64,000 nucleotides of DNA. It comes from Staphylococcus phage Fi4S2. Positions within the stretch are counted from its first letter, which is position 1, and each line of letters opens with the position of its first letter. Shown here piece by piece: positions 4,179 to 60,233 of the stretch. Below the pieces are notes generated by a model. That model searched no databases, was not told the DNA's origin, and saw nothing but the letters and a program-made list of their open reading frames with translations. The DNA lies in the sequence record PV037056.1. One strand, 5' to 3'. The position numbers and the translations under genes were made by a program.

Positions 4179-4989
4179 TGAAATCTCCTCTGTACTTCAA
4201 TTCAGCAGGTTTACGGTATTGGAAAGGATGTTTAGAAACCTGTTTCTCAGAGTCCTTGATACCTAATACCATTGCCTTACCAAATAATGCTTTTAGTTGT
4301 TTATCATTTCTTACACCAATCATGTCTTGAATGATGGCAGGTTTTCTTAATGAGTTATTTAACATACCACGTGCTTCATGTCTTAGTTTGTCATGAGGCA
4401 TAACTTTATCTTTAGATGATGAGTTGTTTTTAAATCTATCTTTACCATGCATACGTATCAATTCAGCTTTCCATAGTACATCTAGCATGTGATAGTTAGA
4501 ATGTATTGGAGAGGGCATAGCTTGTTTGTACTTACCAAATATAGGCTCTCCCTCAAAAGATATATAGCTGATAATACCTACATGATTATGTTTGTATCTT
4601 TTTATTACTTGCTCTACCTTATCAATAAAGTCATCATGACAAACTACGTATACATACTCACAAACTAAGCTATACATACGTAGTTGTTTATTAAGTCGAG
4701 TGGTAGAGTCTCTTTCTGTCTTAATCTCTAGACCTATAGAAGTTCCTTCAGTGTCTATCATTAAACAATCCATGATACATTTACCTCTCATAATTGCTTT
4801 CTCAAAGATTGCAACCCTAAGGTCATCATCCTTAACTAACCCTTCTTCTCTCTCAAACATGTGAGATAAATAGAGTAAGCCATCTTTTATGTCCTGTTCA
4901 TAGTAACGTTCTTCTTTAGCTTTCTTGACTTCTTTTTCATTATCTACAAACTCACTTCTATACTTATCTTTTTTTACTCTCATAACCAC
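4165..4989 (-). CDS. hypothetical protein, possible PD-(D/E)xK-type nuclease motif
   Basis: 274-aa ORF; segment MIDTEGTSIGLEIK (D...E-x-K) resembles a restriction-endonuclease-like core; weak. Confidence 0.4.
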   Translation of the reverse strand: MVMRVKKDKYRSEFVDNEKEVKKAKEERYYEQDIKDGLLYLSHMFEREEGLVKDDDLRVAIFEKAIMRGKCIMDCLMIDTEGTSIGLEIKTERDSTTRLNKQLRMYSLVCEYVYVVCHDDFIDKVEQVIKRYKHNHVGIISYISFEGEPIFGKYKQAMPSPIHSNYHMLDVLWKAELIRMHGKDRFKNNSSSKDKVMPHDKLRHEARGMLNNSLRKPAIIQDMIGVRNDKQLKALFGKAMVLGIKDSEKQVSKHPFQYRKPAELKYRGDFNDEL

Positions 4990-5498
4990 ATGTCACTACC
5001 TTTTTTAGCTAACTCATCTTTTAGTATAGCTGTAGGTGTAATGTAAGTTTTGACCCATTCAATAGACTCTAAGGAGATAAATACCATTGTTATCTTCTCT
5101 TCTATCATTTCTTTTTTTGCATAATCCCATGTACTTGGTTCTCTCTCAAAGAACCCTAGACCTTCTTTACCTGTAACTGTATCTATACCAGGTACAATAG
5201 GTGCTATAAAGAGTGGTGGGTTAGTTCTTCTTATTTTCTTACCAGTTGTTCTAGGTAATACTTTCTTCAGGGCATCACTTAAAGCTGTACCCCCTACAAT
5301 ACCAGTAGTTTGTTGTTCTATTGTAAAATCTTTGATAGGTTCTTTACCATCTTCAACATCTGCAACACCATAAACAATAACAATACCTTTGTCATCTTCA
5401 GGTATCTCTACAATATAAAAAGGCTTTCCTTTAAAGTAAAGGATACCTCGTTGCATGAGTGTAGCAGGTGACTTGCTATTCTTAATATTAATTTTCAT
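4980..5498 (-). CDS. hypothetical protein
   Basis: 172-aa ORF. Confidence 0.5.
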   Translation of the reverse strand: MKINIKNSKSPATLMQRGILYFKGKPFYIVEIPEDDKGIVIVYGVADVEDGKEPIKDFTIEQQTTGIVGGTALSDALKKVLPRTTGKKIRRTNPPLFIAPIVPGIDTVTGKEGLGFFEREPSTWDYAKKEMIEEKITMVFISLESIEWVKTYITPTAILKDELAKKGSDMWL

Positions 5499-56317: not shown

Positions 56318-57757
56318 ATGAGTAGAAAAATGAAAGAGCTAGTAATTACACGTTCTTTAAAAGACTTAGAATTTGCAAGAGGGGCTTTATTAAAGCTCCC
56401 TGCAACAGTCTTTGAAGATGATAAGTCTTTACAAACTATTTACACAGTTTTAAAGAGACAGTTAATGAGCTCTCAAAATAGACCGAGCCAAGAAGTAATG
56501 ACATTAAAAATTGAAGACCTTTTAACAAAACAGGGTAAAGATGATGAAGTTATAGATACTGCCATATCTACACTTAACTCTTTATATGAAGTAGAGAAGG
56601 ATAAGAAGTTAGAAGATGAATCAATCAATACAGAAGTAGATAACTACGTTAAAGCTGAAATGACTAAGGATGCTATTATTAAAGCTGTTAGAAAAAATGA
56701 ATTAGAAGACGTAGATAAGATAGGCAAACTAGGTGAAGAGATTACAAAGATTGCAGTTCAGAATCTTTCAGGAGGTTCAGGAGACTTTTTAGACTTCTTC
56801 AATGACATAGACAAGAAAAAAGAATTGCTATCTAATATCTATTCTCATAAATATCCAACAGGATTTAAAACTTTAGATGGTATTATTGAAGGTGGATTAT
56901 CTAGAGGAGAAGTTGGTGTTATCTCAGGTATTACAGGTGGTGGTAAATCACTTACTATTACTAACCTTATTGCCAACTATGTCCGTAGTGGCTTGAATGT
57001 ATTGCTTGTATCACTAGAGGAGAACATGGAACGTATTGTATTACGTTCTGAGCAACAGATGTTTGGTATTAAAAAGAGTAGTATCTTAAATACAGACTAC
57101 ACATTAAATGAAGCTTCATATGAAGCTATTCAAAAGCTATACCAACAAAAAGGTAAAACGTTTGGGAACTACTTCATTTCTAAACACAAACCTCAAGAGG
57201 TAAGTCCTTCAAAACTAGAGCAAATAATTGTTAATACAACAGTGAGAGAAGATACAAATATTGATGTAGTCATTATTGACTATCCTGAGCTTATGATTAA
57301 TCCATATAATAATGCTAGTGAGTCAGAAGCTGGTTCTTTAATCTATGAACATATCCGTAAACTATCACAAGAGTATGACTTCTTATGTTGGACTATATCT
57401 CAGGTAAACCGTAATGCATCTCAAAATAGTGAAGTAATAACTAAGTCTCATATTGAGGGTTCTAAACGTAAACTGAACGCAGTAGAGCTTCACTTAACAT
57501 TAAACCAAACATCAGAAGAGTTTGAGGCAGGTTACTTAAGATTTTACTTAGATAAGGTACGTAACAACTCAGGTAGAGTATCTAGTAAAATCATACCTAT
57601 GAGAGTAGAGCCTGAAACTATGACAGTTAGAGATTGCTTACCTGAAGAAATACAAGAGCACTCAGAAGTAATGAACTCTAGAGATAGTCAAGTGTTTAAC
57701 AAACCTAAACAAGAGTCACCTACTTCAAGAGCTAAAAGTTTTGATAATGGATTTTAG
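56318..57757 (+). CDS. DnaB/RecA-fold replicative-helicase-like ATPase
   Basis: Walker A GITGGGKS, Walker B VVIIDYPEL, 479 aa. Confidence 0.65.
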   Translation: MSRKMKELVITRSLKDLEFARGALLKLPATVFEDDKSLQTIYTVLKRQLMSSQNRPSQEVMTLKIEDLLTKQGKDDEVIDTAISTLNSLYEVEKDKKLEDESINTEVDNYVKAEMTKDAIIKAVRKNELEDVDKIGKLGEEITKIAVQNLSGGSGDFLDFFNDIDKKKELLSNIYSHKYPTGFKTLDGIIEGGLSRGEVGVISGITGGGKSLTITNLIANYVRSGLNVLLVSLEENMERIVLRSEQQMFGIKKSSILNTDYTLNEASYEAIQKLYQQKGKTFGNYFISKHKPQEVSPSKLEQIIVNTTVREDTNIDVVIIDYPELMINPYNNASESEAGSLIYEHIRKLSQEYDFLCWTISQVNRNASQNSEVITKSHIEGSKRKLNAVELHLTLNQTSEEFEAGYLRFYLDKVRNNSGRVSSKIIPMRVEPETMTVRDCLPEEIQEHSEVMNSRDSQVFNKPKQESPTSRAKSFDNGF

Positions 57758-57768
57758 GAGGAAGATTA

Positions 57769-58350
57769 ATGAAATTTATATTTTTCACAGACAGTCATTT
57801 TCACTTATTCACAGACTTTAGTAAACCTGATGAGTTTTATCGTAATGACAGATTTAGAGAACAGATAGAAACTTTAAATCATGTTTTTACTCTTGCTAGA
57901 GAAAAGGAAGCTACAATTATTTTTGGTGGTGATTTATTTCATAAACGTAATGCTGTAGATACAGTAGTATATAATGAGGTATTTAAGGTATTTGCTAGAA
58001 ATAAAGATGTAGCTGTCTTATTACTCAGAGGCAACCATGATGCTACAACCAATTCAGTGTATACTGACTCAAGTATAGACACGTTTGAATACTTACCTAA
58101 TGTAAGTGTATTTCAATCTTTTGGAACTATAGAGGTAGGTAATGCAAACTTAGTATTTACAGCTTATGGTGATGAGACTGAAGAGATAAAGGACTACATT
58201 GAAGATAACTACAATACAGATAAGGTTAACATCCTTGTAGGACACTTAGGTGTAGAAGGGTCTTTAACAGGTAAAGGTTCACACAGATTAGAAGGAGCTT
58301 TTGGGTACCAAGACCTTTTACCTGATAAGTATGATTTTATTCTTTTAGGG
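57769..58350 (+). CDS. sbcD: SbcD/Mre11-like nuclease, exon 1 (motifs I-IV)
   Basis: GGDLFH (II), LLLRGNHD (III), ILVGHLGVEG (IV), ends YDFILLG where E. coli SbcD has DYIALGHIH; stop follows immediately. Confidence 0.75.
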
Positions 58351-58523
58351 TAGATGCCCTGCTTATTCGTAAAGAGTAAGTACCGAGTGTTAAATGCTAT
58401 GAATCCGTAAAGCTAACTAAACTGAAACAGAAGAGGAAACTCTAGATGGAAAAGTTGTGAAAACAGAAAAAATTAGTTAGATGTACTAAGGTTAAATCCT
58501 AAGGTATACACAATCGGTCTATA

Positions 58524-58680
58524 GCAGGGAAAGACCTAAGTTCAAATGAATAAGGGAGACCCTCAACGACTATTCCGTATAGGTGACGGAAGTAAAACCC
58601 TAAACGACTGAGGGAAGAAAAATACTCCTACCTTAACTAAGGTAGAACAAATAGTCTCCACCCGTACCGAAAGGTAGGGC
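58524..58680 (+). ncRNA. group I intron catalytic-core-like elements
   Basis: gCAGGGAAAg (P/P4-like, 58524-58533), GACUAU (58568-73) complementary to AUAGUC (58651-56) = P7-like, AAAUAGUCUCC (S-element-like), hairpin ttccgt/acggaa (58573-91), stem ctacctt/aaggtag (58626-46), cccgtacc-GAAA-ggtaggg GNRA-capped helix (P9-like). Confidence 0.5.
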
Positions 58681-58750
58681 TATAGATGAACTATAGGATT
58701 ACAAAGTGGTGTTTGTAATCAAAGAATGTTAAATAAATTATAACTTCCTA

Positions 58751-58779
58751 TTGACATTACTTCCCTAACATGTTATAGT
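58751..58779 (+). promoter_or_regulatory. consensus sigma-A promoter inside the intervening sequence driving tnpB
   Basis: TTGACA-17 bp-TATAGT, then TAAGGAGGTG RBS before ATG 58802. Confidence 0.5.
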
Positions 58780-58801
58780 ACATGTATAAGGAGGTGTAAT
58801 A

Positions 58802-60076
58802 ATGTCAGAAAGTACAACGTACAGAAAAATTAAAATAAGGTTAGTACCAACAAAAGAACAGGAAGAGTTAATGTGGAAGCATGTTCATGCTAGTAGATTT
58901 ATTTACAATTGGGGTCTTGAAAGGTGGTATAGTAATTTAGATAATGGAATAAAGAATACTACAAGTAATAAGTTATCTAAAGAACTAAAAACAGTGAAAG
59001 AAGAAAACCCATGGTTAAAAGAGGTATCTAATAAAACTTTAGTAAAATCATTACAAGTTCTAGAGTTTAATATGAAGAGGTTTTTTAAAAAACAAACTAA
59101 AAGACCTAAATTTAAGAGCTCTAAAAGCAGTATACCTTCTTTTAAAACACGAACAGAAACTAAGTGGGGTAATAAACATTTACCTAACATTGAAGGAGAT
59201 AGGATACGGTTAGAAAAACTAAAATTAGTTAAATTATCTTCTAAGATAACTAAATCTATGAAAGAAAAGAACATAAACCCTGTATTTTATTCTAGTACAA
59301 TCTATTATGATGGTAAATATTGGTATATTTCATTAGCATATAAAGTCGAGAACCAAGACAAAAAAGAACTCACCAATGAAACCATAGGTATAGACTTAGG
59401 AATAAAATCATTAGCTACTTGTTCAAATGGTAAATCTTATAAAAATATTAATAAAAGTTCTAAAGTTAAAAAACTAGAGAAAAGACTAACTAGATTACAA
59501 AGACAACTATCACGTAAGTATGAAATGAATAAAGATAAAATACGAGTAGGACTACTTAATACAGATGGAACACCTAAGATAGATAAGCAAGGTAGACACA
59601 TGTATAAGTATTCTAAAACTAAGAACATTATTAAGTTAGAAAAAGAGATAAAACTCTTACACAGAAAACTTAAAAATATTAGAAATAATCATGTTCATAC
59701 TATGACTAAAGAAATAGTAGAATTATTACCACAAGAAATAGTAATAGAAGATTTAAAAGTAAGTAATATGTTAAAGAATAAACATTTATCTAAACATATA
59801 AGTAAAGCTAATTGGTATGAAATACGTAGACAATTAACTTATAAATGTGAGGATAGAGGAATTCTTCTTACAATAGCAAATACTTATTACCCTTCAAGTC
59901 AAACCTGTAGTCATTGTGGTAATCGTTTAACCAAACAAGACAAACTTAGTCTTAAAGAGAGAACTTACAAATGTAAGAAATGTAATTCTAGTTTAGATAG
60001 GGACTTAAATGCTAGTATTAACTTAATGAACTATAGATACTCCAAATGGTGTCAAAATAATATAATTTCACAATAA
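58802..60076 (+). CDS. tnpB: IS200/IS605-family TnpB (OrfB; OMEGA RNA-guided nuclease)
   Basis: 424 aa; RuvC-I IGIDLGIKSLA, RuvC-II IVIEDLKVSNM, zinc finger CSHCGN...CKKC, RuvC-III DRDLNASINL; N-terminal OrfB_IS605-like region. Confidence 0.85.
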   Translation: MSESTTYRKIKIRLVPTKEQEELMWKHVHASRFIYNWGLERWYSNLDNGIKNTTSNKLSKELKTVKEENPWLKEVSNKTLVKSLQVLEFNMKRFFKKQTKRPKFKSSKSSIPSFKTRTETKWGNKHLPNIEGDRIRLEKLKLVKLSSKITKSMKEKNINPVFYSSTIYYDGKYWYISLAYKVENQDKKELTNETIGIDLGIKSLATCSNGKSYKNINKSSKVKKLEKRLTRLQRQLSRKYEMNKDKIRVGLLNTDGTPKIDKQGRHMYKYSKTKNIIKLEKEIKLLHRKLKNIRNNHVHTMTKEIVELLPQEIVIEDLKVSNMLKNKHLSKHISKANWYEIRRQLTYKCEDRGILLTIANTYYPSSQTCSHCGNRLTKQDKLSLKERTYKCKKCNSSLDRDLNASINLMNYRYSKWCQNNIISQ

Positions 60077-60233
60077 AAGAAATATATTATATGTAGGATT
60101 CCGTAAATCCGAATTTACGCCTTTGGAGTATCATACAAACCTTAGTAGAGTAATAAGAAGTAATTCTTTACAGAATGAAATACTCAAAAAGGGATACGTT
60201 GAAGAAGGAAGTTATAAATTAATTAACATACGG

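Follow-up and report, generated by a model that had tools for sequence, protein, structure and literature searches.

The sbcD gene of Staphylococcus phage Fi4S2 is interrupted by a 1,883-nt insert (58351-60233) that carries tnpB, which raises the question of what kind of element this is, how the split gene could still yield its product and what the TnpB nuclease would do there. The window analyzed is the whole 64,000-nt stretch of record PV037056.1, and all positions refer to it.

Boundaries and class of the insert

57769..58350, plus strand: sbcD exon 1, Metallophos domain (ORF, Pfam PF00149), 3' end ...TTTTAGGG
60230..60233, plus strand: element terminus ACGG (ACGG in related copies, ATGG in two divergent lineages, flanks diverging beyond it)
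60234..60677, plus strand: sbcD exon 2, opening HYHRRQ... (ORF, comparison with Golestan-100)

The ends of the insert are fixed by comparison with phage Golestan-100, whose intron-less allele reads TTTTAGGG joined directly to CATTATCAT. Exon 1 is collinear with this allele as far as 58350, and exon 2 begins at 60234 with cattatcatagaagacag, so that the split of sbcD and the start of exon 2 agree with the original prediction. At the left junction TTTTAGGG is followed by TAGATG, with U as the first base of the element, and the rule of a GG-ending 5' site, a G-final 5' exon and a U-first element also holds for nine related copies. At the right junction ...ACATACGG abuts exon 2. The 3' terminus is CGG, without a target duplication, and the 3' flank varies with the insertion site.

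In 14 copies with at least eight different flanks, ...ACGG is the limit of conservation. Because conservation stops there in every related copy, the right end of the element coincides, on this comparative evidence, with the 3' splice site, as had been proposed, and G60233 would be the last nucleotide of both the intron and the scaffold. We infer that sbcD is spliced, since both exons are intact in three diverged lineages and their joining restores the LLG-HYH motif.

By its sequence, 58351-60233 is an IStron of the IS607 type (group B) that lacks tnpA and lies within the sbcD of a Staphylococcus Twortvirinae phage. Its order from 5' to 3' is ribozyme, 5' arm of an AU-rich stem, promoter and RBS, tnpB, scaffold, 3' arm of the stem and ACGG. 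A tblastn search with two TnpAs as queries found no tnpA or remnant in the window, and the gap between ribozyme and tnpB measures only 76 nt, with no remnant inside. ORF-B-only IStrons such as CsISt1 count as members of the group (PMC4227781), thus the absence of tnpA is no bar to group B membership. No LAGLIDADG, GIY-YIG, HNH or His-Cys box gene was found, and TnpB is the sole intron ORF.

TnpB and its predicted promoter

58751..58779, plus strand: internal sigma-70-type promoter TTGACA-17-(TG)TTATAGT, predicted for tnpB and the guide RNA (consensus match, conservation)
58789..58794, plus strand: RBS AGGAGG (sequence, conserved in relatives)
58802..60076, plus strand: tnpB, 424 aa, predicted IS607-type RNA-guided nuclease (ORF, Pfam, structure match)

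TnpB scores above the Pfam cut-offs for HTH_OrfB_IS605, OrfB_IS605 and Cas12f1-like_TNB. Its closest solved structure is the IS607 TnpB of ISFba1 (8IAZ; E 4e-51, residues 9-410), compared with 1e-34 for ISDra2. Aligned to 8IAZ, the RuvC triad is intact (D198 in GIDLG, E316 in VIEDL and D399 in LDRD), as is the zinc finger (C369/C372/C391/C394), which bears out the earlier description of a complete enzyme with both motifs. The gene is under purifying selection, as judged by dN/dS values of 0.27-0.41 among phage copies. A scan of bacterial genome contigs revealed no close bacterial relative of this TnpB.

The promoter matches TTGACA-17-TATAGT at 11 of 12 positions, has a TG extension and is the top-scoring site within 57000-61500, but promoter-like matches by themselves are not above chance (13 versus 21.6 ± 4.9 in shuffles). 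The -35 element, spacing, -10 element and RBS are kept in all intron-bearing relatives (10 IStron copies), and the equivalent site in phage Romulus carries a promoter annotation. Both the promoter sequence and the strong RBS that had been noted inside the intron are present and retained in relatives.

Group I ribozyme and AU-rich stem

58351..58725, plus strand: group I (IA2-like) ribozyme with P1 and P2-P9.1, including P7.1/P7.2 (Rfam Intron_gpI, RNAalifold)
58726..58749, plus strand: AU-rich inverted-repeat (IR) stem, 5' arm, closing the ORF loop (duplex with 60206-60229)
60206..60229, plus strand: AU-rich IR stem, 3' arm (overlapping the 3' strand of the RAGATH-18 outer helix)

Rfam detected no group I intron when the whole window, or 14 kb, was searched. 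A match to the full Intron_gpI model (58342-58679; 31.7 bits, E 2.4e-6), which lies below the gathering score of 50, emerged only when 481 nt served as the search sequence, and covariation among nine phage copies was therefore used instead. RNAalifold returns 103 consensus pairs for these copies, 52 of them with compensatory changes. In P1, 58347-58351 pairs with 58356-58360, the exon strand being the AGGG at the end of exon 1, and position -3 covaries with the ribozyme guide sequence (G-C in seven copies, C-G in two).

The IR stem of 24 bp encloses the ORF. Its duplex is predicted at -22.3 kcal/mol, compared with -10.9 ± 2.6 for shuffled tails, and its arms covary between short-tail and long-tail copies, whereas the pairing is missing in intron-less TnpB elements. 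As the 3' arm shares a strand with the outer helix of RAGATH-18, folding as an intron and folding as a guide RNA are predicted to be mutually exclusive.

Predicted guide-RNA scaffold

60088..60233, plus strand: predicted omegaRNA/reRNA scaffold, ~146 nt (block conserved in 14 TnpB-linked copies)
60096..60110, plus strand: conserved scaffold hairpin GGAUU-CCGUA-AAUCC (87% of cells pair, 5/5 pairs compensatory)
60120..60210, plus strand: RAGATH-18 motif, RF03064 (65.8 bits versus a gathering score of 44.9, E 1.6e-11)

The conserved block runs from TATATGTA to ...ACGG in the 14 TnpB-linked copies and is single-copy in the window (nhmmer). Its onset lies ~12 nt past the tnpB stop codon. The scaffold is thus wholly downstream of the gene, and the idea that the guide RNA uses the 3' end of tnpB does not hold. 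RF03064 is the sole Rfam family over threshold in the 64-kb window and is present in 13 related loci too; RAGATH-18 is the guide-RNA core of IS607 TnpBs and has been reported only with these (PMC11061315).

RAGATH-18 and the guide are 23 nt apart in this lineage, compared with 36 nt for the copies in Silviavirus sbcC and tail-lysin genes. Since this distance is ~50 nt in ISFba1, the scaffold is, on sequence, a shorter variant of the RAGATH-18 type that differs from the solved one. The observed score of the 60096-60110 hairpin is reached by none of 500 shuffles. Folded as a single sequence, scaffold plus guide gives -24.5 kcal/mol (z = -0.37), no better than shuffles.

The hairpin cgtaaat-ccga-atttacg singled out in the original prediction is present at 60102-60119, 25 nt after the stop codon, but it is unconserved and pairs in 67% of cells. 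Its outer three pairs partly covary with the 60096-60110 loop (GC in six and UA in four sequences at one pair). This could reflect a pseudoknot, though one pair fails in 6 of 14 sequences. A pseudoknot between 5' UAUAUGUA and the 3' tail (ACAUA), sought by eye, was not consistent across tail types.

Predicted target motif and guide

58347..58350, plus strand: predicted TAM / IS607-type target motif AGGG, the last 4 nt of exon 1 (flank comparison)
60234..60253, plus strand: predicted guide / protospacer CATTATCATAGAAGACAGTA, the exon 2 start (20/20 match to Golestan-100 behind AGGG)

With the right end at the 3' splice site, the guide would be expected to come from the beginning of exon 2. By analogy with ISFba1 and CboIStron, which supply the length, we infer that it comprises the first ~16-20 nt of the exon. 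No second match to 60234-60253 occurs in the window, even when the seed is shortened to 10 nt. Every related copy has a 5' flank ending in GG (AGGG, TGGG, GGGG and GCGG), group B IStron targets are AGGG, TGGG or GAGG (PMC4227781) and the TAM of CboTnpB is TGGG (PMC10690162). RAGATH-18-guided IS607 TnpBs need a G-rich 5' TAM for cleavage (AGGAG, GAGGG, TGGG), to which the xGGG/GCGG flanks seen here compare. The earlier assignment of the guide to the exon 2 start and of the TAM to the exon 1 end is thus consistent with the boundaries, with the target in a sibling phage and with the CboIStron precedent (PMC10690162).

Exact matches to the intron-less target were sought in IMG/VR, and none was found. 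Twortvirinae mostly carry GGT, not GGG, at the sbcD site, so susceptible alleles are expected to be rare.

Same-site spread among phages

Three divergent phages carry the IStron at the identical sbcD site, which is uninterrupted in 306 phage records. Same-site copies are 88-97% identical in nucleotide sequence across the IStron, versus 64-75% in the flanks, and at four-fold sites tnpB is 86-91% identical versus 45-57% for sbcD. In Golestan-100, whose flanks match the window at 96-97% identity, the element is missing and the TAM and 20-nt target are perfect. This same-site pattern points to site-specific horizontal spread (homing): by sequence comparison, the element appears to have recently entered one identical position in phages that are only distantly related, which is what homing driven by a guide RNA would produce. 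The guides of the three copies differ at 2-6 of 20 positions, and thus no sampled phage can be another's direct donor.

Exon 1 is 12% divergent from Golestan-100, compared with ~3% elsewhere, which hints at a co-conversion tract in either direction. PSU6 and L023 were considered as its donor and ruled out by three- and four-way site analyses. Phage MRSA28 has been reported to lack a transposase that is present in MRSA12 and MRSA32 (PMC13346280). It was rejected as an absence case, as the site is split there too and the linear record starts and ends near the element.

Proposed homing and its alternatives

Taken together, these features make it likely that the insert is a group B IStron that splices from sbcD and spreads by TnpB-guided homing into intron-less alleles. 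In the sbcD pre-mRNA, the ribozyme guide sequence would pair with the G-rich last nucleotides of exon 1, the AU-rich stem would form and bring G60233 to the ribozyme, and the element would splice out, allowing SbcD to be produced. Transcripts from the internal promoter would be unable to splice because they lack the ribozyme and the 5' arm. They would instead supply TnpB and a guide RNA running past the right end into exon 2 (~60234-60253). The TnpB-RNA complex would then cut DNA in which AGGG precedes CATTATCATAGAAGAC..., the arrangement of the intron-less sbcD alleles in co-infecting phages. The element's own copy would be spared because its matching sequence is preceded by ACGG, a TAM-like decoy with C at -3. 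Repair of the cut allele from an IStron-bearing genome would copy the element in. Access to new sites in the past was probably provided by an IS607 serine recombinase acting in trans. The CboIStron provides a precedent, with a TGGG TAM, a scaffold ending in UCGG, a guide derived from the 3' exon, and splicing that competes with guide-RNA formation (PMC10690162). The original prediction had already proposed that intron-less alleles are targeted while splicing keeps sbcD functional, and the Golestan-100 target, the same-site spread and this precedent (PMC10690162) favor it.

Alternatively, the copies could have arrived by transposition, with an IS607 serine recombinase acting in trans from a co-infecting Silviavirus or the host and TnpB only restoring excised copies, the role it has in bacteria. 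A source in trans exists, as 28 Staphylococcus phage records contain tnpA homologues and KSAP7 has a complete tnpA-tnpB unit. Moreover, the IStron family occupies at least six different gene sites, which requires transposition at some time, and GG at both junctions is the crossover signature of IS607 (PMC10690162). However, TnpA requires little beyond GG (PMC10690162), which makes three independent insertions at the identical sbcD nucleotide improbable. The window also has neither tnpA nor a remnant between ribozyme and tnpB, and close relatives in bacterial genomes were not found, so that we regard transposition as an unlikely account of the sbcD copies. It is quite unlikely, too, that the main role of TnpB and its RNA is that of a weapon, killing intron-less rivals without conversion, or of a regulator of sbcD splicing. 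Phage homing endonucleases are known to kill competitors (reviewed in PMC13565253), splicing of CboIStron is repressed by TnpB and by the omegaRNA fold (PMC10690162, PMC13521648), and the IR stem overlaps RAGATH-18 here. Yet killing alone does not suffice, because the element is much younger than its host genes at a single site, which requires copying, and the intact catalytic residues give no indication of a purely regulatory, nuclease-dead role.

The original prediction viewed the locus as an IS200/IS605 element with an omegaRNA made from the tnpB 3' end plus the right end and the 60102-60119 hairpin in its scaffold. Although the Pfam domain name OrfB_IS605 fits and the hairpin exists in the sequence, this assignment is very improbable. 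The 5' flank is G-rich rather than TTGAT-like, and AU-rich inverted repeats are found where subterminal DNA hairpins would be expected. RAGATH-18 scaffolds are reported with IS607 TnpBs only (PMC11061315), the IS607 protein of ISFba1 outscores ISDra2 as a structural match, scaffold conservation begins past the stop codon, and the 60102-60119 hairpin pairs in fewer cells than the overlapping 60096-60110 hairpin. The family is therefore replaced by an IS607-type group B IStron with a RAGATH-18 reRNA.

Relation to known systems

The CboIStron of Clostridium botulinum (IS607; Zedaveinyte et al., PMC10690162; NAR 2026, PMC13521648) likewise has a 5' group I intron with tnpB inside and, as predicted for Fi4S2, a right-end omegaRNA, a right end that is the 3' splice site, a guide read from the 3' exon, and mutually exclusive splicing and guide-RNA folds. 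Both scaffolds end in CGG (UCGG in CboIStron), whereas the TAM is TGGG there and predicted to be AGGG here. The Fi4S2 element differs in lacking tnpA and in residing in a strictly lytic Staphylococcus myovirus rather than a Clostridium plasmid or prophage, and its TnpB is only ~35% identical to the Clostridium phage D-1873 copy. A conserved promoter between the 5' IR arm and tnpB is not discussed in the CboIStron papers (PMC10690162, PMC13521648). The likely targets are other phages' alleles here, as opposed to the sister chromosome after excision.

With the group B IStrons BcISt1, CbISt1-4 and CsISt1 (Tourasse et al. 2014, PMC4227781) the element shares the AGGG/TGGG target, the G-final 5' exon, a first intron base U pairing in P1, the CGG terminus, an AU-rich IR stem (15-34 bp; 24 bp here), an IA2 intron and an ISBth15-like ORF B. 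In that group ORF A is often lost and ORF B retained, as here. The element is absent from the 2014 survey, in which neither Staphylococcus nor Herelleviridae elements appear. Unlike those surveyed, the Twortvirinae elements interrupt lytic-phage genes that are essential, for replication and structure.

The ISFba1 TnpB-reRNA complex (Ren et al. 2024, PMC11061315; PDB 8IAZ) shares the RuvC triad, a G-rich 5' TAM (predicted in Fi4S2) and a RAGATH-18 directly 3' of tnpB, outside the coding sequence. Its scaffold measures ~187 nt versus ~146 nt predicted in Fi4S2, the guide-proximal segment ~50 nt versus 23 nt and the guide-distal segment ~65 nt versus ~32 nt. Relative to ISFba1, the RAGATH-18 apical loop here has a 23-nt insertion, TnpB exceeds its counterpart by ~40 residues and has an insertion between RuvC-I and RuvC-II, and the element lies within an intron.

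Classical phage group I introns (T4 td/I-TevI, SPO1/SP82 I-HmuI and the Twort introns) similarly combine a self-splicing intron with an essential gene, a patchy distribution among relatives and entry into intron-less alleles during co-infection. Their nucleases are protein homing endonucleases, whereas the one here is predicted to be RNA-guided and to take its target sequence from the neighboring exon. An allele should consequently become immune through synonymous substitutions, whether in the GGG codon or within the first ~12-16 nt of exon 2.

Implications

The underlying idea is not new, as IStron TnpB-omegaRNA biology was published in 2023-24. The element is of a known kind, the Clostridium IStrons, and represents a new member in lytic Staphylococcus phages. 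The literature searched contains no description of an IStron or TnpB from phages of Staphylococcus or of the Herelleviridae, though Lavigne and Vandersteegen 2013 (Future Virol), which deals with introns of Staphylococcus phages, may contain a mention. Such "transposases" are routinely annotated as separate genes, splitting sbcD, sbcC, portal and tail-lysin in therapeutic Staphylococcus phages. Their recognition as self-splicing RNA-guided homing elements would correct these gene models and flag possible movement of DNA between phages in cocktails.

The broader reading, which we favor by a small measure, is that the TnpB-only Twortvirinae IStrons act as RNA-guided homing introns in strictly lytic phages, with a separate non-splicing tnpB-guide transcript and resistance through synonymous changes. 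If so, splicing and homing would be separated by transcript, beyond competition between RNA folds alone, and intron-less phages could become resistant through a GGG to GGT change in the TAM codon or changes in the first ~12 nt of exon 2. "Intron homing" has been proposed as a still untested answer to why TnpB is retained after transposase loss (PMC13565253). The phage elements offer a tractable natural test, given their lytic hosts, the nearly isogenic intron-plus and intron-minus pair of Fi4S2 and Golestan-100, the perfect 20-nt target in the intron-less phage and the same-site transfer already in the sequences. They would provide a natural example of the "intron homing by an OMEGA nuclease" that the 2026 review (PMC13565253) treats as implied but still unvalidated.

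Organization of the insert

The window comes from a Staphylococcus Twortvirinae myovirus whose nearest records are Golestan-100 (~92% identity) and PSU6 (~86%). The ORFs on either side of tnpB are the two halves of sbcD (Metallophos), which the intron-less sbcD of Golestan-100 joins as TTTTAGGG/CATTATCAT. This places the insert at 58351-60233, with junctions carrying the usual two-base GG ambiguity. It contains:

58751-58779, promoter-like sequence TTGACA-17-TATAGT, with TG (11/12 matches)
58789-58794, ribosome-binding site AGGAGG
58802-60076, + strand, tnpB ORF (424 aa)

The ORF product matches Pfam HTH_OrfB_IS605, OrfB_IS605 and Cas12f1-like_TNB, and it retains the RuvC residues (D198, E316, D399) and an intact zinc finger (C369/C372/C391/C394). 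Among solved structures, it is closest to the ISFba1 IS607 TnpB (8IAZ; E 4e-51, residues 9-410), whereas the match to ISDra2 TnpB is weaker (E 1e-34). The gene is under purifying selection (dN/dS 0.27-0.41). The ORF, motifs, promoter, ribosome-binding site and split sbcD had all been described in the original prediction, with which the ORF, Pfam, structure and sequence checks agree.

The insert is a group B (IS607-type) IStron

The element had been assigned to the IS200/IS605 family. Its junctions, RAGATH-18 and 5' group I ribozyme contradict this and instead place it among the IS607-type ("group B") IStrons, self-splicing group I introns fused to a transposon remnant. AGGG precedes the insert, whose first base is U and whose last four are ACGG, exactly as in the group B definition (AGGG/TGGG/GAGG ... 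CGG, with an intron that starts with U after a 5' exon whose final base is G; Tourasse et al., PMC4227781). RAGATH-18 (60120-60210; 65.8 bits against a threshold of 44.9) is the sole Rfam family above threshold in the 64 kb; it forms the core of IS607 TnpB guide RNAs ("reRNA"), and its co-occurrence has been reported with IS607 TnpBs only (PMC11061315).

Judged by sequence and covariation, the first 375 nt of the insert are a group I ribozyme. The whole Rfam Intron_gpI model aligns to 58342-58679 (31.7 bits, E 2.4e-6), a match that lies below the gathering score and appears only when a short stretch is searched. Nine phage copies, once aligned, yield a consensus with an IA2 layout, P7.1 and P7.2 included, and 103 pairs, of which 52 show compensatory changes. 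In P1, the exon end xGGG and the first intron U pair with (U)GCCCU. Changes at exon position -3 are matched in the ribozyme guide sequence: seven copies have G-C, and the two inserted after GCGG have C-G.

A 24-bp AU-rich stem, in which 58726-58749 pairs with 60206-60229, corresponds to the ORF-enclosing "IR stem" of group B IStrons. The pairing has an energy of -22.3 kcal/mol, whereas shuffled tails give -10.9 +/- 2.6. Both arms co-vary between short-tail and long-tail copies, and the stem is absent from the intron-less TnpB elements of Twort, phiSA12 and PG-2021_9. The insert contains neither tnpA nor a tnpA remnant, and IStrons with ORF-B only are already known.

Guide-RNA scaffold and predicted guide

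Fourteen TnpB-linked copies (the window, 10 Staphylococcus phage loci, Bacillus phage 250, Clostridium phage D-1873 and one IMG/VR contig) were aligned from the stop codon. A conserved block starting at TATATGTA (window 60088) is followed by a hairpin, RAGATH-18 and an AU-rich tail. The tail ends in ACGG in the 12 copies from Staphylococcus phages and Bacillus phage 250; the IMG/VR copy ends in AACGG, but sits out of register, and no CGG end stands out in the D-1873 tail. More divergent copies from Romulus (portal) and SA11, analysed apart from the alignment, end in ATGG. Beyond ACGG, the sequences are unrelated and track the insertion site (sbcD site A, which is that of the window, sbcD site B, sbcC, tail lysin or intergenic). 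Thus, the right end of the element is the predicted 3' splice site, G60233, as had been supposed.

Other parts of the earlier RNA model fared differently. An omegaRNA drawing on the 3' end of tnpB had been expected, but, in contrast to IS605 omegaRNAs, the predicted scaffold lies entirely 3' of the stop codon. The part next to the guide measures 23 nt, compared with ~50 nt in ISFba1. For the hairpin picked out earlier (60102-60119), no more than 67% of the cells in the alignment are paired, whereas an overlapping one (60096-60110) pairs in 87%, with compensatory changes at 5/5 pairs and a score reached by 0/500 shuffles. Partial covariation also links the loop of this conserved hairpin (60102-60104) to the sequence just 5' of RAGATH-18 (60117-60119), with GC in six and UA in four sequences at one pair (alignment A1, columns 33-35 with 49-51). 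A pseudoknot may be present here, although 6/14 sequences break one of the three pairs.

In CboTnpB, the scaffold ends in UCGG, the guide is the 3' exon and the TAM is TGGG (PMC10690162). By analogy, the predicted guide is CATTATCATAGAAGAC(AGTA) (60234-60253), with a protospacer unique within the window, and the predicted TAM is AGGG (58347-58350). The phage's own copy is predicted to be spared by TnpB, because its protospacer follows ACGG, which differs from the TAM at position -3, the position most strictly discriminated by CboTnpB (PMC10690162).

A putative internal promoter and two proposed RNA fates

The 3' IR-stem arm shares nucleotides with the RAGATH-18 outer helix, on the 3' strand of that helix (GAAGG, 60204-60208), so the intron and guide-RNA folds are mutually exclusive, the same conflict described for CboIStron (PMC10690162; PMC13521648). 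The predicted promoter directly adjoins the 5' IR arm on its 3' side. A transcript from it would contain neither the ribozyme nor the 5' arm, and could become only tnpB mRNA and guide RNA. Promoter and ribosome-binding site are kept in 10/10 intron-bearing copies examined, and the equivalent Romulus site was independently annotated as a promoter. The CboIStron papers relied on synthetic promoters, and a promoter inside the element is not discussed in them (PMC10690162; PMC13521648). A second promoter-like site (TTGACA-17-GATAAT, 60807-60835, 11/12) lies inside ORF 60656-61057, upstream of sbcC.

Evidence for movement

The identical sbcD nucleotide is occupied in three phages: that of the window, PSU6 and a metagenomic contig (L023). 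Among them, the IStron is 88-97% identical and the flanking genes 64-75%; at four-fold degenerate sites, the values are 86-91% for tnpB and 45-57% for sbcD. On these identities, the IStron copies share a far more recent origin than their hosts do. Golestan-100, with flanking genes 96-97% identical to those of the window, lacks the element and has AGGG followed by a 20/20 match to the predicted guide. The site is uninterrupted in 306 phage records, and the Kayvirus and Baoshanvirus alleles carry GGT for GGG plus 2-3 guide mismatches. A similar presence/absence polymorphism is found at the Silviavirus tail-lysin site.

Independent transposition could also have filled the same site, but IS607 TnpA requires little beyond GG (PMC10690162), which makes repeated use of one base unlikely. 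Site-specific copying (homing) is the better explanation. The predicted guides of the three copies differ at 2-6/20 positions, so the sampled phages were not each other's direct donors. Exon 1 (57769-58350) differs from Golestan-100 at 71/582 positions (12%), against 2.9% in exon 2 and ~3.5% in neighbouring genes, and at 38/71 of these positions the window agrees with the IStron-bearing allele of PSU6 or of L023. This divergence may be a one-sided co-conversion tract, which the sequences only suggest, or a recombination event in Golestan-100.

The window's intron-less sbcC reads ATGTATGGT/CAGGGAGACGTTCCTATGTT at 61493-61520, agreeing at 19/20 positions with the guide carried by the sbcC IStron of Silviavirus (StAP1, SPJ2). 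It lacks the predicted TAM because its Gly codon is GGT, not GGG, a pattern shared with Kayvirus at sbcD site A. GGT at both sites may reflect TAM escape or no more than codon usage.

Relatives and source of transposase

The family occupies at least six different sites. KSAP7 carries a complete unit of IS607-type tnpA (serine recombinase) and tnpB (L025, 2995-4688) just 3' of a split DNA polymerase I gene, and 28 Staphylococcus phage records contain tnpA homologues. Autonomous relatives thus exist in Silviavirus, and it is plausible that the family reached its sites via transposase supplied in trans. Source-named homologues at least 52% identical to the window TnpB are all from Staphylococcus phages or Herelleviridae assemblies, the remainder being metagenomic; bacterial IS607 TnpBs are at most 49% identical, and no close relative was found in bacterial genomes.

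Four loci (L013, Twort; L014, BE24; L015, phiSA12; L016, PG-2021_9) hold intergenic TnpB and RAGATH-18 units that end in CAACGG and have neither ribozyme nor IR stem, so intron-less IS remnants and IStrons of the family coexist in Twortvirinae. The sbcC IStron of phage DELF3 has the 5' junction TATGAATGATTGCCCC (L004, 3250-3275) in place of TATGGG/TAATTGCCCC in relatives; the exon end and TAM are disrupted, and splicing cannot restore the reading frame. Either the copy has decayed or the record contains a sequencing error. The SA11-lineage IStron (L007, 4170-4284; L005) keeps an intact tnpB and the IR stem but appears to be without its guide-RNA scaffold, most of RAGATH-18 being deleted to CCTTT...CAAAGGAA. 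An IMG/VR contig (L008, 3300045988_158589) has two group I introns above the Rfam gathering threshold (2426-2758 and 4930-5263), one directly upstream of a TnpB 31% identical to that of the window, and two tRNA genes at the start of the locus, ~2.1 kb upstream of the first intron. It is a candidate phage-borne IStron beyond Staphylococcus phages.

Discussion

The element agrees with the published IS607 IStron in architecture and in proposed mechanism, and adds one more example to a kind already known. Group B IStrons were recorded earlier in C. botulinum phages c-st and D-1873 (PMC4227781). In Staphylococcus phage papers, "group I introns", "RAGATH-18" and "IS200/IS605 transposase ISBth15" appear as unconnected items (PMC13346280), and we found no description of IStrons or TnpB homing in these phages in the searchable literature. 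A 2026 review holds that TnpB-only IStrons "imply intron homing", with validation still awaited (PMC13565253). The value of the element is as a natural, tractable case of proposed RNA-guided intron homing in lytic phages.
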